DNA of 30,349 nucleotides, from the IMG/VR virus record IMGVR_UViG_2778261692_000006, one strand, 5' to 3'. This DNA is from a virus. Its lineage: Duplodnaviria; Heunggongvirae; Uroviricota; Caudoviricetes. The notes under the pieces were generated by a model. It was not told the DNA's origin and did no database searches. It saw only the letters and a program-made list of their open reading frames with translations. Below, piece by piece: positions 735 through 30,198 of the stretch. The translations under genes were made by a program, and so were the position numbers. The number at the start of each line of letters is the position of its first letter. Position 1 is the stretch's first letter.

Positions 735-1811
735 TCAGAGCAGTAAGTACGTTTTTTCTCTCTCATCAAGATACATTTTTGTTGTCTTCTCCGATGTGTG
801 GCCAAGTAGACGCTGAGCAAATTCTTCTCCACATGTTTCTTTGTACAATCGTCCAGCCAGGCTTCTGATCTCGTGAAAAGTTGGTGGGTTTTCACTGAAC
901 TGGATACCTGTTAATTTTCTGGCTGCGACAAATTTTTTTGTCAGGCCATCCGGGTGAATGCTGCCGTCAGGGCTGTTTTTTCTAATCCCGGCACTGATTA
1001 GATAATCTCCCCGGCTTACCAGGCGGCACTGTTCAACTACTGTACCAAGCCGTAGACCAGCGACAGGAAGGCTGAGTGACAGGGGGATAGCAATCATCAT
1101 TCCTGTCTTAATTTGCCTGATGTGGAGACGATCATCATAAATATCACTAAACCGCATATTCGTTATGTCTTCGCGACGTTGTCCTGTTACAAGGGCTAAA
1201 TCCATAGCTAATGGGAACCATGCCGGAAGTTGATCTGCTGCCTCCCTGATGCAGTTGTATGTCTTTAGTTTCAGTCGTTCTCTTGTAACTACTATTTTCG
1301 GTGCTCTTGTTGGCGTTACTGGATTTTGAGATATACGTCCTTCAACAATGGCCTCACGAAACATATCAGACAACACAGAACGCATTGATCCTGCCATTGT
1401 GTTTTTCCCTCCTTCAATCCACAAATCAAGAAACTCGGCAATATGGCGAGTGGTTATTTCTGTCAGTAAAATCTCTCCCAATTTTTCTTTTATTGTCTCC
1501 AGTTGATTTACCCGAATTTTATAAGTATTTCTGGACACTTTTCTCCTTATAAGAATCGTTTTGTAACGTTCAATCCAGTCTGCCATAGTAAATGAGTCGA
1601 ACCCTTTAAGTTTTTCAATTAAGGCAGCAGGAGAGTAGTTTTTGTATATATAATGATTTGCTTCAATTGCCTGCGCGATTGCATCTCTTCTTGAAATTTT
1701 ACCTAGTGTAAATTCTTCTTTCGTCAGAGGGTTGCGCCAGTAATATGCTTTGTCCCTCCTTCGATATGTTAAGTTCCTAGGCAAATTGGGATCGTATTTT
1801 TTCCGCTGCAT
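735..1811 (-). CDS. int: Tyrosine-type site-specific integrase (lambda Int family)
   Basis: 358-aa ORF at the prophage edge; C-terminal region with RLLGH...TTKMYLD matching the tyrosine recombinase catalytic region; 3' end overlaps xis. Confidence 0.9.
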
Positions 1812-2603: not shown

Positions 2604-3707
2604 TCAGGAGCCGATATATTCTGGTTTCATATCTGTCAGTGTCGTTTTATACGCCTCATATAATTCACCCAGATGTGGCCGGGCAGCATTCAGCGTATTT
2701 TCCAGAGCAGTAAATTTTTGTTCTGCTTCTGGATCACCTGATGAAGGAAGGTCATTTATCATCTTCTCGATACTGGCAATAGCATTGAGACGGTGATGAC
2801 GCCGAACCACTTTTCCTTTAAGCTCGGCAAAGAATTCGCCGATCTGGTTTTTCTGATCCTCTATCTCTTGGCGTAATGCAGTGGTTTCCTCAGTCGTGGC
2901 CGCGCTTTCGACACGCTGCCGGAATTCATCAATCCACGCTTCGTCAATACGCTGTTCGATGGTTTCTGTTCGCTGCTCGCTTACCTCGCTATAATTCTGT
3001 ACCGGCACAGGATTGATGATTTTTTCCTGTGGCTCTTCCAGTTCGTCCGGGGTATACACGCCCAGGATGACGTCAGGACAATAAAGGCGAGCCCAGTATT
3101 TCAACGCCAGATAGGCGAGCTGTTGTTTCGGGTTTGAGGTCCATAAAGGAGAATTACGCGTAATCACGCTGGAAAGAAACACCGGTTCTCCCCAGGTAAT
3201 CTCACTTTCACCGCGAAGAACTGCACCAACTCGAACTGAGAGACCATACTCATCTTCACTGGTCCAACATGGGATCGTTTCTTTTTTCTCATAGATTCCG
3301 CCTCCTTTGGCCGTTTTCTTAACGGTCTCCACTCGGGTGCGAGAGCATTTCTCCCAGTCTCCCTCGTACTTGTAATGGAAGCGGCCTACAATTGCACTTG
3401 AGCTAGAGATCACAGCGTTAACCAGTTGTGCTTCATAACCCAGAACTCCGTTTACCAGGTGTGTTTTCTGAGCCACAGCGTAGGGGTTCATGCCCCATTG
3501 CATGGCTTGCATGATGATTGCCATGCAATCGGCAGGATTTCCGCGAAGGTGATCGGGAACTGTGACGGTGGCCTGTGACATCAACCCGGCTACTGCCTGA
3601 AGTTGCGTCAACGCCTGAACGTTAAAAATAGTGTTACTGGCAGAAATGGTATTTGGTGTCTGCTCTGTCGTGATGATATTGGTATTTTGCATGGTCAGGT
3701 TCTCCAT
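2604..3707 (-). CDS. recT: RecT-family single-strand annealing protein, divergent, with acidic coiled-coil C-terminal extension
   Basis: Immediately downstream of recE with 1-nt stop/start overlap; distant resemblance to RecT conserved segments; 367 aa versus about 269 aa for K-12 RecT. Confidence 0.55.
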   Translation of the reverse strand: MENLTMQNTNIITTEQTPNTISASNTIFNVQALTQLQAVAGLMSQATVTVPDHLRGNPADCMAIIMQAMQWGMNPYAVAQKTHLVNGVLGYEAQLVNAVISSSSAIVGRFHYKYEGDWEKCSRTRVETVKKTAKGGGIYEKKETIPCWTSEDEYGLSVRVGAVLRGESEITWGEPVFLSSVITRNSPLWTSNPKQQLAYLALKYWARLYCPDVILGVYTPDELEEPQEKIINPVPVQNYSEVSEQRTETIEQRIDEAWIDEFRQRVESAATTEETTALRQEIEDQKNQIGEFFAELKGKVVRRHHRLNAIASIEKMINDLPSSGDPEAEQKFTALENTLNAARPHLGELYEAYKTTLTDMKPEYIGS

Positions 3708-6700
3708 TAAGCCAGATGCAGTGCTTCAAGACGACGAAGATCAAAGTCGTTTAATTCGTCGGTATAACTTTCGGTAATCGGTGCTGGCCAGTTGTTTGTC
3801 TCTAGGGCTTCGTTTATCTGGCGTAGCGTCCGGCGATACTCCTGTCGACCAAGTTCCAGGAGTTCCTGCGAGGCTTCCACGACAGCCACCCAGTGATAGC
3901 CAGCATCTTTGTTGACGAAGATCCAGAAAAATTTGTCCAGGTTTGCCACATCGCAATACATTGCGGCGCTGAGGTGATAATCACGCTCAATAATTTCACG
4001 GTGCAGGCGATCTTTAAGTCGTTCCTGCCGCACATAACCGAGGCTGACTGACTTCACGTCAGCGCAAATGCTTTCGTATGGCAGCCGGATTTCGATATCA
4101 GGACGGACCCTGATTTCCAGCCCGGTTTCTTCATCAAACCCGAAATAGCTGATTTCAGATTTGCGATCCGGGTGGTTGAGTAGCCTTGCTGCATCGGTAT
4201 TGTTTTGCAGTGCCGCGTGAATATTTTTTGCCTGTTCATACATATCCAGACTGATAAACGTTTTCCCGGCGTTTTCTTCTTGCTGGCGTTTTTGCCAGTC
4301 CTCCAGTGTCACCAGTTCCGGGCGAATTTTCCGTGCGATTTCGGTTAATTGCTCTTTTGTGCCACTGATGTTGTAAGGCAAAGATTTAGCACGTTCTTTT
4401 TTTGCCAGTTCTGGGTCTACAGTTTCAATTTGATCCAGAAGCTGCTCCCGTGCTCCACTGGTTTTCAACAGAGGAGGGAGGCTTGCGTTGTATTCTTTAA
4501 TACAGGCTTTCATTGCTGATGCTGTATGTTTTTCCCCCTCAGGAATACGCCGAAATTCCACCGGAAGCGAACCGTAAAGGATGCCTGTTTCTTCGCCCCC
4601 AGCACTTACAGACAGTGGCTGTATAAGAGTGCTGTTGTAGCTTTCGATCCACTCTTTCATCTGCTCTGGTGTCATCAGTGCTGGCAGACTGGCATTGTGT
4701 TTTTTAATGATGGCGATCAGTTCGTTAGAAGTAGTAACCACATATTCAGGAACCGGTACCGGAATGGCATATTCATCAGCGAATTTATCCGTTTCCAGAA
4801 CATAACTGTGAATGATCCGCCCACGCAGCAGTGCATCACTTTCCTCGTTCGGAATAGTTCCGGCAATGTGCCGCCCGTGGTAATACATCAGGCTGATACG
4901 GGCATCCTTCAGCATCGTGCTGCTTATTCCGTTGGCGGAGTGATAAACCTCGTTCGGGAGGTTTTCATAGCGGCCTGGCTCGAAATATGACGGCCACATG
5001 ATTTCAGTTGCTACAGGAGCTGACGCTTCACCAGTTTCATCACTGTAATCGTGATGCGGATGGTTGCCAGCGTTCTCCTTGTGCGGATGTTCAGCGCCTT
5101 CCATTTCCTCCGGATCATTTTCCTTAGCTTCAACCTGATTCTCTTCATCGAATGTTTCCTGGTATGTTGCGTCGCCCATTACCGCACCACAGTCAGGGCA
5201 GTTATCCCCGTCAGTCTGACCGCAGGCGGCGCAGACTTTTTCCGGTTCCTGTTGCGCTTCTGGTTCATTTTGTCGCGCATTTGGGCTGTTTTGTTCCGCT
5301 TTTTGGTCGTTCCGTTCCGATTCATGCTGGTTCTGGTTCACAGAATCGCGAGTCTGGATCCCCTTGACCCATTTCGGATCATTAGGGTCGCTAATCCCCT
5401 CAACAAATTCACCACGCGATACAGCAAGTAACTTATCGGCGTCAGGCTGGCTGATATTGGCTGCCTGCATAATTTTGTTTACTTCGTCAGCGGTGACTTT
5501 TACTTGGTTAGCGGAACTCACCTGCGACTGAGCATCCAGCGACTGCGCGTTCTGGCCATGTTCAGTTGTATCCGGTTCCATTGTTTCAGTTGTTGCCTGT
5601 TCACCTGCCATTGCGTCAGATGGTTGTGGTTTTTCTTCTTCTGTTTCACGCTCAGTAACCACCTCGCGGTTAATTTCTTCCAGGATATCTTTTTCCGGCG
5701 TATGCCGGGCAGCTGTGAGAGTTTCCTTGCTGGGGTTCTCGTGATCAGTTTCCGTCAAATAGGCGTTGATATACCCCTGAAGGCGTCCCGGGTAGTGATA
5801 AAATTCAGGGTGTGCGCTTCGGATAAGTGCAAAAATAGCGGCGCGGGAATAGTCCAGAATACCCGGGGTTGCACGAAGTGCTGCGGACCATTCTTTGAAC
5901 GGACTTTCTTTGTTCAGGACTACTTCTTTTGCGCGACGATAAACGCTGCCCGGAATTTCATAAATATTAAAATCCATCGGAAGTGTGGCTGCTGCAATCT
6001 CCACATCCAGTGTGTCGAGGGTGTGTACTAAATTCGGATTGCGATCGGTTTTGTTCCCACCGCCAGCATTAGCACCGGAAGCCGTGCGGGTGATGCGTGA
6101 AACACGATTTCCTTTCATCCACTCTTTTGTCAGCAGGCCGCGATCGGTGTAGTCAGCGTCCAGGTATGCTTCGAAAAAAGCAGTCATTAATCCCAGACTG
6201 GAATTAACGGGATTAGGGAAAACTTTGTCAGTGTCGCGAACCAGTTTGTGGAGGTCGCGAAGTTCCAGTGGGTCGAGCAGGCTGGTTTTGTGCGAAATAG
6301 CCAGGGCAGTAACTGCTGGTAGTTCTTCAGCTCGTGCAATGTGTAATGCCTGTAGTTCGTCGCGTGAAACGTGCGTTACCGGTTTTTCGCTGCCGTGTTG
6401 AGCAAGCCAGCGAATGGGCAGCTCCTGACCGGAAATCGGGAGTAGCATATTCTCCTCAATCTCCGTCATGTCTTCGCCATTAACATTGGTATTGTCAGTG
6501 CTGGCTGGTTTGTCCTGCGCAGAGGATGAGGGCGCGATAAATACCATTGTGATGCCATCTTCCCCGCCTTTTTCGTAACGGTTGCAGAATTCCGTATCAA
6601 ATACGCCTTCTGGTGGAAGGTCATCAACAACGGGCAAATTGACGCGAACAGGTTTTTTAAAGTCATCTTCATCGTAGCCAGCATCGTCAATCGCAACAGC

Positions 6701-6832
6701 ACCACGGGAGATGGCAATGGATAATTTTTTCGCTTCAGCCCAGTAGAAACCGCCTTTAATACCGAGACGTTTTCTTACTTTGTCATTTTTTGCTTCGTAA
6801 TACAGTGGGTAAACTTGTTTATCGGTGCTCAT
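3707..6832 (-). CDS. recE: Exodeoxyribonuclease VIII (RecE), long form
   Basis: 1041-aa ORF with long stretches matching Rac RecE as recalled (e.g. NTNVNGEDMTEIEENMLLPISGQELPIRWLAQHGSEKPVTHVSRD); translationally coupled to the downstream recT-like gene. Confidence 0.9.
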   Translation of the reverse strand: MSTDKQVYPLYYEAKNDKVRKRLGIKGGFYWAEAKKLSIAISRGAVAIDDAGYDEDDFKKPVRVNLPVVDDLPPEGVFDTEFCNRYEKGGEDGITMVFIAPSSSAQDKPASTDNTNVNGEDMTEIEENMLLPISGQELPIRWLAQHGSEKPVTHVSRDELQALHIARAEELPAVTALAISHKTSLLDPLELRDLHKLVRDTDKVFPNPVNSSLGLMTAFFEAYLDADYTDRGLLTKEWMKGNRVSRITRTASGANAGGGNKTDRNPNLVHTLDTLDVEIAAATLPMDFNIYEIPGSVYRRAKEVVLNKESPFKEWSAALRATPGILDYSRAAIFALIRSAHPEFYHYPGRLQGYINAYLTETDHENPSKETLTAARHTPEKDILEEINREVVTERETEEEKPQPSDAMAGEQATTETMEPDTTEHGQNAQSLDAQSQVSSANQVKVTADEVNKIMQAANISQPDADKLLAVSRGEFVEGISDPNDPKWVKGIQTRDSVNQNQHESERNDQKAEQNSPNARQNEPEAQQEPEKVCAACGQTDGDNCPDCGAVMGDATYQETFDEENQVEAKENDPEEMEGAEHPHKENAGNHPHHDYSDETGEASAPVATEIMWPSYFEPGRYENLPNEVYHSANGISSTMLKDARISLMYYHGRHIAGTIPNEESDALLRGRIIHSYVLETDKFADEYAIPVPVPEYVVTTSNELIAIIKKHNASLPALMTPEQMKEWIESYNSTLIQPLSVSAGGEETGILYGSLPVEFRRIPEGEKHTASAMKACIKEYNASLPPLLKTSGAREQLLDQIETVDPELAKKERAKSLPYNISGTKEQLTEIARKIRPELVTLEDWQKRQQEENAGKTFISLDMYEQAKNIHAALQNNTDAARLLNHPDRKSEISYFGFDEETGLEIRVRPDIEIRLPYESICADVKSVSLGYVRQERLKDRLHREIIERDYHLSAAMYCDVANLDKFFWIFVNKDAGYHWVAVVEASQELLELGRQEYRRTLRQINEALETNNWPAPITESYTDELNDFDLRRLEALHLA

Positions 6833-11565: not shown

Positions 11566-12315
11566 ATGGAGACTGTTTTTGACGCACTGAAAGCAATGGG
11601 AAAAGCCACATCCATAGAACTTGCTGCGCGACTTGATATCAGTCGTGAAGAAGTGCTGAACGAACTATGGGAACTGAAAAAGGCTGGTTTTGTTGATAAA
11701 AGCGCGTACACCTGGCGTGTGGCTGATAACAACGTTCAGCAGGAACAGCCAGCGCCGGAAGAAACTACTACGGCAACAGTGACAAAAATTTCGGAGAGCG
11801 ATTTAACCGCGACGATTGAACAACGCGGACCACAAACGGCTGATGAGCTGGCTACATTGTTTGGTACCACATCACGCAAAGTGGCTTCAACGCTGGCAAT
11901 GGCAATCAGCAAAGGTCGTCTGATTCGCGTAAATCAGGGCGGTAAATTTCGTTACTGCATACCGGGCGATAATTTACCAGCAGAGCCGAAAGCAGCATCG
12001 GTAGCGGAAACTGATGGTAAGGCCTTTCCTCAGCCCGCAGGTGTTGCGTTACCAGTACAGGAAGCTGCAACACAGGAAGATATTAAAACAGAAACTGTGG
12101 CGGACATTGTGCAGTCGCTGCCATCGTTTACTGAAACGCGAGCGGATGACCTGGTTTTACCATCACTGCATATGGCAAACCGCGAACTGCGTCGGGCGAA
12201 AAATCATGTCCAGAAGTGGGAGCGTGTCTGCGCCGCGCTGCGTGAGTTGAACAAGCACAGGGATATTGTACGACAGATTACTGATTCTTCCCGCCATGTT
12301 GCATCGGAAAAGTGA
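11566..12315 (+). CDS. Hypothetical protein with two winged-helix-like repeats
   Basis: Chosen start METVFDAL (track ORF begins at 11515); two segments resembling wHTH ([30 protein letters not shown] and [30 protein letters not shown]). Confidence 0.5.
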
Positions 12316-12330
12316 TTGCCGGAGGCGCTT

Positions 12331-12753
12331 ATGGCAAAAGTATTTACACAAGAAGAGCGGGAAAAAATTAAGGGGAAGGTTGTTGAGCTCGTGCGCCAGA
12401 GTGGGCGCGAGACGTTACGACAACTGGAAGCTAAGACAGGTGCGACAAGGTATCTGATGAGTGTTCTTGCCAGAGAGCTGGTTGCCAGTGGCGATTTATA
12501 CAACTCCGGCTACGGGTTATTCCCGTCAGAACAGGCTCGTAAGGACTGGCAAAATGCCCGCAAAAAACTATCCAGGGCAAAGGTGAAGAAACCATCTGTG
12601 GTTGATCCTGACCTTATCTGGTCATTACCTGACGGAGAAATACGTCGCTACGACAGGAGTATGAACATAATCTGTCACGAGTGCCGGAAGAGTGAGGTTA
12701 TGCAGCGTGTACTGGCTTTCTATCAGGGTAATTTTCAGGAGGCGGTACTGTGA
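12331..12753 (+). CDS. Hypothetical protein
   Basis: ATG at 12331 preceded by GGAGG; the track ORF starts at an upstream TTG. Confidence 0.5.
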   Translation: MAKVFTQEEREKIKGKVVELVRQSGRETLRQLEAKTGATRYLMSVLARELVASGDLYNSGYGLFPSEQARKDWQNARKKLSRAKVKKPSVVDPDLIWSLPDGEIRRYDRSMNIICHECRKSEVMQRVLAFYQGNFQEAVL

Positions 12754-12785
12754 GTGAAATTAGCTATCAGGCTTCAATTACCGCT

Positions 12786-12806
12786 GGCATTCGCATCAAA
12801 GGAGAG
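12786..12806 (+). repeat. Junction repeat GGCATTCGCATCAAAGGAGAG, copy 1
   Basis: Identical 21-mer placed 4 nt upstream of the ATG at 12811; here intergenic. Confidence 0.8.
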
Positions 12807-12810
12807 GAGC

Positions 12811-13167
12811 ATGGAAATAAAACCAGAAGATGAGTTAAGCAATATCGTTTTATTTCCGGTAAAAGAGGATGACCCTCGTAATCAGGTTAATTTTCTTTAT
12901 GAGCCATCGGAAAGACCATATTGCCATCACGCTTCTGTCCGGGTTGACGAAAAAGAGCGTCAGGTCCGCTGTAAAATCTGCGGTGCAGTTGTGGAGCCAT
13001 TTGACTGGATGCTCTCTGTGGCGAAAAGAGAAACCAGACTGGCAGATGATGTAAGGCTATTGCGCCAGGAGGAACAGGAAAGACGGAAAAATATAGAAAA
13101 GTTAATTCAGATTGAGCGTAACGCGAAAGCGCGGATACGCAGGGTGACAAAATCCAGAACTGAATAA
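12811..13167 (+). CDS. Hypothetical protein with a Cys/His zinc-ribbon-like motif
   Basis: Start MEIKPEDE directly after the junction repeat; PYCHHAS...RCKICGA motif. Confidence 0.5.
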   Translation: MEIKPEDELSNIVLFPVKEDDPRNQVNFLYEPSERPYCHHASVRVDEKERQVRCKICGAVVEPFDWMLSVAKRETRLADDVRLLRQEEQERRKNIEKLIQIERNAKARIRRVTKSRTE

Positions 13168-13262
13168 TTAAATTTAGCACTGTTAAAAATTCGATCCTTA
13201 ACCGGAGGGATTTCTGCACCCTCAGAACATCAGGAGGCCGCCCGAAAGGGCGGTAACAAATA

Positions 13263-13739
13263 ATGCAAGAAATCAAAGAAAATATCAGGCAACAGCTTTA
13301 CGGGTTTTATATTGCTTATGATTTGTGGCTGAAGAACGGGGCAAAACCCGGCGGAGTGTTTTCTCAAAATTATGGTTTATGCGCCAATCTTTTCGATTAT
13401 CTCACATTAATTGGTACCCCCTGTGAGGCAGCGCTGGAGCAATTACACGCTGATTTCAGAAGTGCCGGGCTGAATGAGGCGTTGCCGTTTAACGAGGGTA
13501 AAGAGCATTACCATGAAGAAAGAGGGCACAACATGTGCCATATGAATCCGGCACGAGTGGCGTGGGTCAGGGCGCAGACAGGGCAGCCAGCGCCGGAAGG
13601 ACTGGTTAAAGCGGTGCGCTTCTATGAACAGGTTAAGCGTGAAAATCCGCCAGTCGAAACCGGAGCATGGAAAGACGCTGTTGACTGGGTTCTCGAAGAG
13701 GCTTGTCAGGCTGTAAACATTCGCATCAAAGGAGAGTGA
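13263..13739 (+). CDS. Hypothetical protein; C-terminus encoded by junction repeat copy 2
   Basis: 158 aa ending ...NIRIKGE; AGGAGG lies about 25 nt upstream of the ATG with a GAAA-tetraloop hairpin in between. Confidence 0.55.
   Translation: MQEIKENIRQQLYGFYIAYDLWLKNGAKPGGVFSQNYGLCANLFDYLTLIGTPCEAALEQLHADFRSAGLNEALPFNEGKEHYHEERGHNMCHMNPARVAWVRAQTGQPAPEGLVKAVRFYEQVKRENPPVETGAWKDAVDWVLEEACQAVNIRIKGE
13716..13736 (+). repeat. Junction repeat, copy 2 (18-nt core ATTCGCATCAAAGGAGAG identical)
   Basis: Encodes IRIKGE then stop of the upstream gene and supplies the Shine-Dalgarno for the ATG at 13742. Confidence 0.8.
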
Positions 13740-13741
13740 GA

Positions 13742-14233
13742 ATGCAAATTTCACCGGTTACTCTTCGTGTTGCGAAGGCGTTTATATCCAGACATCACCG
13801 ACACAATAAACCACCTGTTGGGCATAAATTCAGCATTGGTCTGATAAATGATGCCGGAGAATTGATAGGTGTGGCGACAGCTGGTCGACCTGTTGCACGA
13901 CATTTGGACGATGGATTAACGCTTGAAGTAAATCGCACATGTACCACAGGAGAACGCAACGCTAACAGCGCGCTTTATGGTGCTGTCTGGCGAGCAGCAA
14001 AAGCTATGGGTTATCAACGTTGTATTACGTACACCCAGGCAGATGAATCAGGAGCATCTCTTCGCGCAGCTGGTTTTGTTCGTGTGAAAGAGCTTCCTCC
14101 AAGAAAAAGCTGGGCGGAATCAAGCGTCGCCTTGCGGAGTAAACGCGATCCGGTCGGAAACGGTGGTGTTCCTCGTGTGCTCTGGGAAATCAGGAGAATG
14201 AGTACCACTGGCATTCGCATCAAAGGAGAGTGA
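13742..14233 (+). CDS. Hypothetical protein, possibly GNAT-like acetyltransferase fold
   Basis: 164 aa from MQISPV (track ORF begins at a TTG at 13703); segment ADESGASLRAAGFVRV resembles the GNAT motif-B region; C-terminus TGIRIKGE encoded by repeat copy 3. Confidence 0.5.
   Translation: MQISPVTLRVAKAFISRHHRHNKPPVGHKFSIGLINDAGELIGVATAGRPVARHLDDGLTLEVNRTCTTGERNANSALYGAVWRAAKAMGYQRCITYTQADESGASLRAAGFVRVKELPPRKSWAESSVALRSKRDPVGNGGVPRVLWEIRRMSTTGIRIKGE
14210..14230 (+). repeat. Junction repeat GGCATTCGCATCAAAGGAGAG, copy 3
   Basis: Identical 21-mer to copy 1; ends the upstream gene and precedes the ATG at 14235 by 4 nt. Confidence 0.8.
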
Positions 14234-14234
14234 T

Positions 14235-14498
14235 ATGGCAACTTTGACAAAAAAGGAACAGGCATGGTTGAGCGAATTACAGAACGTTCTTGATCGCTGC
14301 CCGTCACCGAAAAAAATTGGTTTTTACACCATTGGCGATAAAAGCATTTACCTGTATGACCTACGCCGCATGGATGAAATCATGGAGGCTCTTGATAATC
14401 GTTCGTCAATGGATTGGTGTGTTGCTGTCCATGATATGAATGCCGGATTTGATGAAAAGATTTTATTCCCCTCATCAGTTGAAAGCACAGCAGGATAA
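14235..14498 (+). CDS. Hypothetical protein
   Basis: 87-aa ORF starting directly after junction repeat copy 3. Confidence 0.55.
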   Translation: MATLTKKEQAWLSELQNVLDRCPSPKKIGFYTIGDKSIYLYDLRRMDEIMEALDNRSSMDWCVAVHDMNAGFDEKILFPSSVESTAG

Positions 14499-14508
14499 GG
14501 ATTAACAC

Positions 14509-15333
14509 ATGACCACTATTACCAAAGAACGTATTGAATTGTTCATTAAAAATCCGCTTGAAAACGGGCTTGCCCGTGGCGAACAAATGGAACTGGCGCA
14601 GATTGCACTGGCCTCACTGGCAGCAGAGCCGGTGGCGTGGAAGGCAACCTTCACGCAAATTGACCATGAATATAATACGTTCACCGCTATGTATTCTGAC
14701 AAAGCAGAAGTCGAACGGTGGGTGCGACTGCATAAAGTAGGTGATTTTCGGGCAAAAATAACACCACTTTATGCATCATCGCCAGCGCTGGTAGTGCCTG
14801 ATAAGTTGCCGCGTGAATACATAAGAGGTTGGCCTCTTGCGTATAGTGATTATGCTGAAGGATGGAACGATTGCCGCGAAGCCATGCTTCAGTCAGGAAA
14901 CTTTCGGGAAAACAAGGATTCGTCAACCAATAATTTTCGGGAAATTTCGGAAACGTCAACCAACTCTCCGCTAATTCCTGGTGAAGTGTTGTCCGCAATC
15001 CGGGAGGTTGCCAGGATTCGTGCCGATTTCGATGATTTTGACGGTGACAGGCGAGGTGTTGGTGATTGTCTGGATGAGGCCGAGCAAGAGCTTATCGTTA
15101 CCATTAACAAATATGCCAGTCAGTTGGCAGTAGAGCCGGTAGTACCTGATGACGTTCTGGAACAGACAGTAGCGTCGCCAGTGCCAGGTAACCAGGTTAG
15201 CGAATTAACAATGTGGGTTAAGCGTCTGGCTCACTCCTTAAAGTACGCCAATAGTTTAAGCAGCTTGCCTGATAAGGCGATGGAATATCTGAAGCAGAAC
15301 GGGTTGGTAGGTGTGGAGGATATTTTACGATGA
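14509..15333 (+). CDS. Hypothetical accessory protein with internal tandem repeat
   Basis: 274 aa; imperfect tandem repeat of about 33 nt at 14899-14963 encoding NFRENKDSSTNNFREISETSTN; stop overlaps the next start (ATGA). Confidence 0.6.
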   Translation: MTTITKERIELFIKNPLENGLARGEQMELAQIALASLAAEPVAWKATFTQIDHEYNTFTAMYSDKAEVERWVRLHKVGDFRAKITPLYASSPALVVPDKLPREYIRGWPLAYSDYAEGWNDCREAMLQSGNFRENKDSSTNNFREISETSTNSPLIPGEVLSAIREVARIRADFDDFDGDRRGVGDCLDEAEQELIVTINKYASQLAVEPVVPDDVLEQTVASPVPGNQVSELTMWVKRLAHSLKYANSLSSLPDKAMEYLKQNGLVGVEDILR

Positions 15334-15449: not shown

Positions 15450-15628
15450 GAAGGAAACAAAACAGAAACAACAATTGCCGTTACCTGTTGTTACCATGGC
15501 AAGTAAACGTATCTCAGGCGAGCGCATTGCGCCGTTCTGACGCAGATAAATTAGCCTGGATAGAAGGTGCTGGCAATAAAAAATAGCGTTTTCTTATCGG
15601 TGTCGGTAAGATTGCTGCGGGTGCTTGA

Positions 15629-15668
15629 GGCTGTCTGCCTCAGGCATGCCACTGTAAGGCAGACAGAG
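15629..15668 (+). promoter_or_regulatory. Structured element in the hok leader
   Basis: 10-bp inverted repeat CTGTCTGCCT / AGGCAGACAG around a loop containing the self-complementary GGCATGCC; an overlapping alternative pairing GAGGC/GCCTC is possible. Confidence 0.4.
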
Positions 15669-15787
15669 AAAAGCCCCAGTTAACATTACGCGTCCGGCAA
15701 GACGCTTAACATTAATCTGAGGCTCAATCTATGAACGGCAAATCTAGGTTAGCCTCTTACGTGCCGAAAGGCAAGGAGAAGCAGGCT

Positions 15788-15943
15788 ATGAAGCAGCAAA
15801 AGGCGATGTTAGTCGCCCTGATCGTCATCTGTTTAACCGTCATAGTGACGGCACTGGTAACGAGGAAAGACCTCTGCGAGGTACGAATCCGAACCGGCCA
15901 GACGGAGGTCGCTGTCTTCACAGCTTACGAACCTGAGGAGTAA
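15788..15943 (+). CDS. hok: Hok/Gef-family type I toxin (HokD/RelF-like membrane peptide)
   Basis: 51-aa product MKQQKAMLVALIVICLTVIVTALVTRKDLCEVRIRTGQTEVAVFTAYEPEE matches the Hok family as recalled; AAGGAG upstream; the track ORF (from 15731) adds a 19-aa in-frame extension. Confidence 0.85.
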   Translation: MKQQKAMLVALIVICLTVIVTALVTRKDLCEVRIRTGQTEVAVFTAYEPEE

Positions 15944-29822: not shown

Positions 29823-30198
29823 TGTAACAGATGTGCTTTTTGACCCCGATTTTTGCGACTTCAATTTGTGGGTAACACGCCGTGTGCAAACGGTGGATGA
29901 GGACGGGATCGGCAGCGACAGCGAAGTTAAAAAGCAGTTTGCCGGAGTCGTAACTGTTGATCGCTCTCTGGAAAACCGTCGTATGCAGGCCGGGCAGGTA
30001 ATCAGTGGTGCAATTCTGATTGTGACGACTGAGCGACTGACACAGGGACAGACTGGCCGTGATGCCGATATCGTGACGTATCAGGGCCGTGATTATCGTG
30101 TGACCTTCGTCGACCCGTATACAGCTTATGGTGCCGGATTCGTTCAGGCTCATTGTGAGTTGATGCCGTTTGATGGGGGAACTCCGGTTGAGCAATAA
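29809..30198 (+). CDS. Head closure / head-tail joining protein candidate
   Basis: 129-aa ORF overlapping the upstream gene by 14 nt. Confidence 0.45.
   Translation: MPTLDVTDVLFDPDFCDFNLWVTRRVQTVDEDGIGSDSEVKKQFAGVVTVDRSLENRRMQAGQVISGAILIVTTERLTQGQTGRDADIVTYQGRDYRVTFVDPYTAYGAGFVQAHCELMPFDGGTPVEQ

Follow-up and report, generated by a model that had tools for sequence, protein, structure and literature searches.

A 21-nt sequence, GGCATTCGCATCAAAGGAGAG, stands at three consecutive gene junctions in the 30,349-nucleotide stretch of viral DNA analysed here (IMG/VR record IMGVR_UViG_2778261692_000006; hereafter, the window), which is a Rac-like lambdoid prophage of Escherichia coli. The repeat consists of the conserved last ~30-37 bases of ead/Ea22-like genes, joined to the ribosome-binding site and the start codon of whichever gene follows. 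Its anatomy and the genes found on either side of it in other phages and prophages make it likely that this translation-initiation junction doubles as a portable patch of homology in the accessory 'ea' block of temperate enterobacterial phages.

Exact copies of the 21-mer lie at 12786-12806 (copy 1) and 14210-14230 (copy 3). The middle copy, at 13716-13736, has two mismatches to it (AAC for GGC), and the 18-nt core at 13719-13736 is exact. These positions bear out an earlier reading of the window made from its letters alone (the sequence-only reading). That reading had held that the recurrence cannot be due to chance, and no match to the 21-mer was found in 100 dinucleotide-preserving shuffles. 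Identity among the three copies is limited to 22-30 nt. Copies 1 and 3 agree across 30 nt with one mismatch (ACC[G/A]CTGGC...), and copies 2 and 3 additionally have TGA in common. The start codons at 12811, 13742, and 14235 lie 4, 5, and 4 nt beyond the core, respectively, and AAGGAG stands 6-7 nt ahead of each, which fits the earlier proposal that the element supplies a putative Shine-Dalgarno sequence to the gene that follows. That copies 2 and 3 encode the (N/G)IRIKGE end and the stop of the upstream protein was also correctly read (...NIRIKGE-stop and ...TTGIRIKGE-stop, respectively). Copy 1 had been called intergenic, and this is not simply so, as it lies inside a 27-codon open reading frame (ORF) that is described below. 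The six neighbouring proteins (DUF977, the 118-aa zinc-ribbon-like protein, the 158-aa protein, the XF1762-family protein, the 87-aa protein, and the 274-aa protein) were compared all against all by blastp, and the sole match was the 6-residue tail (E=1.9). The genes around the copies are therefore not paralogous duplicates, an origin that the earlier reading had kept in view.

The native home of the element was found with its 37-nt consensus, CGCGCCGCTGGCATTCGCATCAAAGGAGAG-TGA-T-ATG, which encodes ...RAAGIRIKGE-stop (the last ~10 codons of a gene) and was used as the query in a search of phage records. The element is present in 389 of these records, including lambda, HK620, P7, P22-like phages, and Shiga toxin (Stx) phages. 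In lambda (NC_001416), it is the 3' end of ea22 (29844-29874); in HK620, it forms the hkaG/hkaF junction, and in the P1-like phage P7, the upf88.3/upf89.0 junction. Lambda Ea22, HK620 HkaG, and P7 Upf88.3 all have the Pfam domain Ead_Ea22 (PF13935). A pro-lysogenic phenotype has been described for Ea22. Among viral contigs, 92 of the 128 upstream ORFs fall into one Ead/Ea22-like cluster; all nine representatives examined have LALLDE..., and eight have the full LALLDERERNQQYIK... core. This cluster has at least 10 unrelated C-terminal domains, all of which end in the same tail. With one representative taken for each of 56 combinations of flanks, conservation leaves the background level ~12 nt ahead of the core, stays high as far as the ATG, and is back at that level right after it. 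The conserved stretch is thus ~37 nt long (about -12 to +25) and reads CGCGCCGCTGGC-ATTCGCATCAAAGGAGAG-TGA-T-ATG. The start codon is exactly 4 nt past the core in 122 of 128 occurrences, and a stop directly follows the core in 87. The junction is GAGCATG in 39 occurrences, in which the tail continues for 8 more residues. The head MTTITKER... is not an Ea22 head; it belongs to eaA-like genes (HK620 hkaE), and the Ea22 head is ...SKIDYQALRE. In lambda, the element is followed by TGAGATCGG..., with ATC in place of the ATG of its relatives (locus L121, 1525-1560), and past this lie remnants of a sequence that in other phages comes after a 6-codon ORF. The gene that once stood behind lambda ea22 seems, from these remnants, to have been deleted.

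The 3' half of the element, AAGGAG-AGTGAT-ATG, has the upstream TGA 1-2 nt before the ATG in copies 2 and 3. It reads as a compact junction that would serve both initiation, through a predicted Shine-Dalgarno sequence, and close stop-start coupling. A shorter motif, AAAGGAGAGTGA[T/G][A/G]TG, is also found behind non-Ea22 tails (...NKGE, ...HGKGE, ...TKGE, and ...GKGE, each followed by a stop). The tail is K-G-E because AAA-GGA-GAG is the ribosome-binding site of the next gene read in the upstream frame; the overlap would force the upstream protein to end in these residues. The same feature has been noted in the proteins: every Ea22 protein ends in [K/R]GE although the C-terminal domains are unrelated, and the significance of this '+GE' motif was called unknown (Dydecka et al., 2020, PMC7093339). 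Read as DNA, an in-frame ribosome-binding site would account for the motif. Nuclear magnetic resonance (NMR) of the lambda Ea22 C-terminal domain found 64 structured residues, and the longer terminal helix of AlphaFold was judged implausible (PMC10834534); the tail encoded by the element therefore lies outside the folded domain. The RNA fold of the three copies with their flanks and of the 37-nt consensus was no better than that of shuffles (z = +0.7 to +0.95), and folding gave no inverted repeat or stem-loop in the element. No Rfam match at E<=1 was found at the copies, and no promoter-like or terminator-like site overlaps any of them.

The flanks of the element reassort. In a set of ~200 viral contigs plus the window, 220 junctions gave 119 unique contexts, with 15 upstream and 22 downstream classes in 56 combinations. 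The four-gamete test was failed by 29 of the 105 pairs of upstream classes (at least two downstream classes in common). For example, the upstream ends ...SIINSIATG and ...KRWNDSRAAG each occur with the MSAITKER gene and with the MALTH gene (loci L008, L065, L088, and L068), and XF1762 and ...KRWNDSRAAG each occur with the MATLTKKE and MATLQELI genes (loci L010, L108, L089, and L125). The crossovers must lie inside the ~37-nt element, because the reassorting flanks have nothing else in common. Polymorphisms to the left of the core (GGC, AAC, GAC, and GGT) follow the upstream gene, and those to its right (TGATATG, TGAGATG, GAGCATG, TGACGTG, and TGAGAATG) follow the downstream gene. When the window was compared with the fetched loci by BLAST, the end-points of homology piled up at 12780, 13730, and 14200-14230. 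Loci collected through the 87-aa gene, for which presence of the element was no criterion, reduce ascertainment bias without removing it; there are 79 of them, and in 61 one of 12 different genes stands upstream of the element or of a close variant. The element thus sits at gene boundaries with differing flanking genes in hundreds of phages and prophages, always at a stop/start junction, and it is present at the junctions of related phages. The sequence-only reading had proposed a junction for modular cassette exchange, and these comparisons with other genomes support it. No deletion product joining copy 1 to copy 2 or 3 was seen among the fetched loci.

The XF1762 gene shows what such a cassette looks like. 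Together with one element it makes up 494 bp (13737-14230), bounded exactly by copies 2 and 3. Locus L002 matches the window, whereas L130 and L168 lack XF1762 and have one element between the same neighbours, that is, the window minus 13737-14230; locus L175 has other genes at the site. In complete E. coli genomes, the empty junction appears as one uninterrupted alignment of 197 nt (H166-H169), and the filled left and right junctions occur in 114 and 84 genomes, respectively; these counts are not exact, as pieces up to ~600 nt apart were joined and alternative short cassettes were pooled with the filled form. Two plasmids of ~58.7 kb, pEc42_3 (empty) and pN8B7-2 (filled), have flanks that are 98-99% identical, and their 100% identity starts exactly at the core of the element. 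The cassette is polymorphic, through either gain or loss.

The tail on XF1762 was acquired, as the sequence-only reading had suggested might be found. The NCBIfam model of the family spans residues 3-136 only, and homologues from other genera end in ...RVLWEI[R/K], followed by little (RGL, RMK, or RGV) or by other tails. XF1762 is Mom-like, and a queuine tRNA-ribosyltransferase-like protein (phrog_887) is the downstream partner 'D6' of the element (L020 and related loci). The two genes look like DNA-modification functions, which hints that the cassettes may include anti-restriction functions. In a Klebsiella pneumoniae prophage (L266-L268), the XF1762 homologue likewise lies downstream of DnaC-like and DUF977 genes, and it adjoins a Kiwa defence pair (KwaA/KwaB) on the opposite strand. 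The accessory block would therefore also be a hotspot for defence genes.

Parallel versions of the element exist in other genera. In the Salmonella prophage L269, XF1762 and the gene preceding it both end in GGCATCCAGGTTATCGAAGGAGA (...GIQVIEGE...). This 23-mer came to light in Salmonella records; it is present in 19 viral contigs from hosts not identified, where it has ~16 upstream and ~10 downstream contexts. The version first seen in a Klebsiella genome, GCTGGCATCAAGGTGGAGGTGA (...AAGIKVEVK-stop), has three upstream and two downstream contexts. Common to the three versions are GCCGCTGGCAT, including its third codon positions, and the purine-rich 3' half. By this comparison, the three versions are homologous as DNA, and within each version the copies resemble one another.

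The element is shared by descent and is abundant in E. coli. It is carried by 3087 of 5426 complete E. coli genomes (57%), at 6795 places and with up to 11 per genome; most places are annotated 'ead/Ea22-like family protein | next gene'. It is also found in at least 120 viral contigs. A scan of species-representative genomes (596 Gb) gave 63 matches. Of these, 33 have flanks identical to lambda and two have near-identical ones, mostly in contigs of ~1 kb from unrelated taxa; such lambda-flanked matches (L207-L263) are in assemblies of Streptomyces, Bacillus, Pseudomonas, Vibrio, and Prevotella, among others. They most likely represent contamination of public assemblies with lambda control DNA. 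About 19 of the 63 are chance 18-mers without shared flanks, ~17 being expected in 596 Gb. A wide taxonomic spread is thus ruled out: the real matches are confined to Escherichia, Shigella, Shimwellia, and two gut-metagenome bins, which are probably mis-binned.

The carriers of the element in the window (Table 1) have no Ead_Ea22 domain (PF13935), whether the DUF977/relic ORF, the 158-aa protein, or XF1762 is considered. Continuity with Ea22 genes beyond the tail differs among the copies: copy 1 has the 5' junction and head, copy 2 a C-terminal module, and copy 3 nothing. The ORF around copy 1 consists of a head, VSEISYQA, joined to the tail SITAGIRIKGE and then read through into EHGNKTRR-stop. 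Its GTG overlaps the stop of DUF977 (GTGA). An alignment of its 5' part to HK620 hkaG, an ea22 homologue, covers the 5' junction and head of that gene (29/36 nt). By this alignment, the ORF is best read as an ea22-like gene reduced to head and tail. DUF977 is fused in frame to the element tail in some phages (L026). In the window, the frames of DUF977 and of the relic tail differ by -1 across A-AAT-TTT-C (a four-T run) at 12727-12753; a simple indel difference is more likely here than low-level frameshifting between the two ORFs. As for copy 2, the last ~48 codons of the 158-aa gene recur elsewhere as the C-terminal domain of a genuine Ea22-like protein (L059), and 63 homology starts fall at 13590-13599, the 5' edge of this module.

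Table 1. Features of the window that bear on the element.
Feature	Position	Strand	Remarks
Lambda-type integrase	735-1811	-	Sole integrase in the window
RecT	2604-3707	-	Recombination system of the prophage with RecE, short-homology type
RecE/exonuclease VIII	3707-6832	-	Together with RecT, 2604..6832
DUF977 (LygF-like) gene	12331..12753	+	Complete without tail; PF06163, profile positions 1-134 of 134
Ea22-type 5' junction (AGGAGGCGGTACTGTGAGTGAAATTAGCTATCAGGC)	12736..12772	+	Homologous to HK620 hkaH/hkaG junction, 29/36 nt identical
ead/ea22-like relic, 27 codons	12750..12833	+	Contains copy 1; GTG 12750 to TGA 12833, VSEISYQASITAGIRIKGEEHGNKTRR-stop
Copy 1, ACCGCTGGCATTCGCATCAAAGGAGAG GAGC ATG	12780..12813	+	Ea22-type tail, predicted Shine-Dalgarno, next start 12811; no stop directly after tail
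118-aa zinc-ribbon-like gene, phrog_1621 ('D1')	12811..13167	+	Commonest downstream partner of the element
158-aa chimeric gene	13263..13739	+	No Pfam match; C-terminal part 13593-13739 is an Ead/Ea22-type module
Copy 2, AACATTCGCATCAAAGGAGAG TGA GA ATG	13716..13744	+	Last 7 codons and stop of 158-aa gene, predicted Shine-Dalgarno, XF1762 start
XF1762-family/Mom-like gene	13742..14233	+	Family model; labelled Mom-like DNA modification protein in PHROGs
Copy 3, ACCACTGGCATTCGCATCAAAGGAGAG TGA T ATG	14204..14237	+	Last codons and stop of XF1762, predicted Shine-Dalgarno, 87-aa gene start
87-aa gene, phrog_1714 ('D3')	14235..14498	+	Elsewhere behind at least 12 different upstream genes
274-aa mosaic gene	14509..15333	+	Without element; head MTTITKER... 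common with HK620 hkaE (annotated eaA-like there); same accessory block

We propose the following explanation. Being identical in many phages amid unrelated flanks, the element would form a portable homology patch of ~30-37 bp, and homologous recombination at it, within ~20-37 bp (by phage RecET, Red, or Erf, or by host RecA), would swap the genes upstream and downstream. Genes between two copies would be gained or lost as cassettes. In the window, the element would in this way have been carried onto genes other than ea22: copy 1 is the tail of an ea22 gene cut down to the relic, copy 2 ends the chimeric 158-aa gene, and copy 3 ends the Mom-like XF1762. Red/RecET recombineering works with arms of 35-50 nt, and deletions between short direct repeats are well documented to occur without RecA. 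The RecT and RecE of the prophage are a candidate catalyst, and lambda Red and P22-type Erf are also plausible. Short homologies are recombined by Rad52-like phage recombinases, Rac RecT among them (PMC3945230).

Several points weigh against this explanation. All evidence for recombination at the element is comparative. The 18-nt core served as the search key for most loci, and its own conservation is thus partly ascertained. Of the 79 loci anchored on the 87-aa gene, 18 are joined through another junction, with just TGATATG in common, and many breakpoints of the block lie where there is no element (13590, 14630, 14850, and 15260). The element is therefore one seam among others, and exchange does not depend on it. 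Its maintenance may reflect a promoting effect on exchange, or it may only be a good ribosome-binding site, spread passively by recombination. The partial similarity of AAGI[R/Q/K][I/V] among the genus versions would also allow the tail peptide some role.

The same element-free breakpoints and junctions speak for the foremost rival, a passive relic, in which the element is no more than a conserved ea22 3' end with a good ribosome-binding site and has no share in the exchanges, the combinations being due to illegitimate recombination and subsequent selection for intact genes (Hendrix-type); copy 1 lies in a degenerate gene relic, and deletions here thus occur outside the element too. We nevertheless regard this as improbable. 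Illegitimate joints would not remake the same ~30-nt sequence between 56 pairs of unrelated flanks, the left and right polymorphisms travel with the upstream and downstream genes, respectively, and the empty XF1762 site has exactly one copy.

The conserved [K/R]GE ends of Ea22 proteins and the retention of AAGI[R/Q/K][I/V] in the E. coli, Salmonella, and Klebsiella versions could instead mean that ...AAGIRIKGE is a functional peptide tag, selected as a signal for degradation, interaction, or oligomerisation and transplanted onto unrelated proteins. A role for the tail peptide is unlikely, and we give this form of it very little credence. Variants are mostly non-synonymous (R to G, R to C, and G to D) while AAAGGAG is fixed, and conservation of the third codon positions of GCC-GCT-GGC across the three versions points to a constraint on the DNA. 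The tail is not C-terminal where the 8 further residues follow, copy 1 and DUF977 are in different frames, XF1762 homologues commonly have no tail at all, and the tail lies beyond the structured residues of the lambda domain. The shared translational operator that the sequence-only reading had offered as its alternative, whereby a trans-acting protein or small RNA would bind the element in mRNA and co-regulate the genes that follow, fits the identical sequence over the ribosome-binding sites of three consecutive genes and a 5' half (GCTGGCATTCGCATC) that has no obvious role in ribosome binding, but is hardly credible given a fold no more stable than that of shuffles, the lack of an Rfam match at the copies, an arbitrary and changing set of downstream genes, and no candidate regulator identified.

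The portable homology patch has precedents. Linker or boundary sequences of lambdoid phages are cited in two earlier papers (PMC3029335 and PMC2839356, citing Susskind and Botstein, 1978; Botstein, 1980; and Clark et al., 2001). Like them, the element is short and conserved, stands where genes or modules meet amid unrelated DNA, and is a proposed focus of homologous recombination, and it has the same orientation at equivalent boundaries in many phages, with flanks that reassort by comparison. 'Boundary sequences' were reportedly described by Clark and colleagues (2001) from HK620, a phage that has the element itself, at the hkaG/hkaF junction. Since it is present there, it is quite possible that this sequence was among those they listed. 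The element fits a linker idea proposed decades ago and is not a new kind of element. This match had been missed by the sequence-only reading, as had the native Ea22 3' end, that of lambda included, and the relic around copy 1. A literature search for the exact sequence string gave nothing relevant. What would go beyond the searchable literature is the scale (57% of E. coli genomes, 56 combinations, and P1-like phages), the identity with the Ea22 tail, and the Salmonella- and Klebsiella-type versions.

Two other systems offer partial likenesses. The PeSL cassettes of T4-type phages (Arbiol et al., 2010, PMC2839356) are also repeated expression signals between accessory genes that provide homology for inserting, deleting, or replacing single genes; they end in a Shine-Dalgarno sequence and start codon, and their looping-out/looping-in model fits the XF1762 cassette. 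Unlike the element, which is ~37 nt, overlaps for the most part with upstream coding sequence, and is free of promoter-like and terminator-like sites and of stem-loops, a PeSL is a ~100-bp intergenic promoter plus stem-loop. Integron cassettes resemble the present ones in holding single genes without promoters, each gene having the repeated site at its 3' end and being expressed from a promoter upstream. The attC sites, which the integron integrase recombines, are imperfect inverted repeats; the element has neither such a repeat nor a fold. An integron-like site-specific system is ruled out, as the only integrase of the window is of the lambda type and the element has no inverted repeat; exchange at the element would be general homologous recombination. 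A bolder version of the proposal is possible, though we hold it as doubtful: a maintained, integron-like cassette platform without a dedicated recombinase, whose genus-specific versions would evolve in concert and provide an expression signal plus homology arms for the capture, loss, and shuffling of single genes. Small circular intermediates, which were shown for PeSL elements in T4-type phages (PMC2839356), would then be possible.

The wider setting of the three copies is a block of small accessory genes. The window further holds a helix-turn-helix repressor gene, a YdaT-like gene, a 262-aa ORF without a Pfam match at the position of the replication initiator, and a DnaC-like gene; the three copies lie just downstream of the DUF1627 and DUF977 genes. 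The block is highly mosaic: the whole 2.3-kb arrangement was found in 12 of 5426 complete E. coli genomes and parts of it in 4366. E. coli QA-1986 630 (NZ_CP101920), which carries this prophage, matches the window at 99.3% identity across 12300-14600. A second type of shared junction is seen here. Many downstream genes start with the head ATGACCACTATTACCAAAGA... (MTTITKER...), as does HK620 hkaE; the head junction is located at 14509-14550 in the window and at 3226-3260 in HK620 (L122), with homology end-points at 14500-14530. HK620 hkaF ends in ...EIKVK-stop (ATTAAGGTGAAATAG), which resembles the Klebsiella-type tail. Conserved 5' heads may be seams too. An exact 16-nt direct repeat, CAGCCAGCGCCGGAAG, occurs at 11746-11761 (DUF1627 gene) and 13584-13599 (158-aa gene), and its second copy adjoins the strongest mosaic breakpoint of the block; ~0.1 such repeats are expected in 30 kb. 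It may be another micro-homology joint or due to chance. A G+C-rich hairpin with a GAAA loop (GGCCGCCCGAAAGGGCGGT), with no T-run after it, is found at 13239-13257, in the 95-nt gap ahead of the 158-aa gene. Around it lie 65 right homology end-points (bins 13250, 13260, and 13280), and it may mark another module boundary. The prophage also has a hok/sok type I toxin-antitoxin locus at 15619-15943, with an Rfam sok match at 15619-15793 (112 bits against a gathering score of 59) and a Hok/Gef-family ORF at 15794-15943 (PF01848, E=6e-24).

The finding bears on the debate over phage mosaicism, in which homologous recombination at short linkers (Susskind-Botstein, Clark) is set against random illegitimate joins and subsequent selection (Hendrix and colleagues). 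Against the linker view, a standard argument is that at most boundaries no conserved sequence can be found (PMC3029335). The element is an unusually clean and abundant positive case, present in lambda and in more than half of complete E. coli genomes, with dozens of flank combinations and a cassette polymorphism. Because lambda and many E. coli carry it, with natural polymorphism, the linker hypothesis is directly testable in standard strains. The Ea22 '+GE' motif, unexplained in 2020, gets a simple explanation, and in annotation and protein modelling the IRIKGE tail should be treated as a junction artefact and not as part of a protein family. Recombination at the element could move DNA-modification and other accessory genes among Stx, lambda-like, P22-like, and P1-like phages. 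Should the cassette platform also prove true, which we consider possible at best, it would be a means by which temperate phages shuffle single genes, such as the Mom-like XF1762 and the queuine-transferase-like DNA-modification genes.

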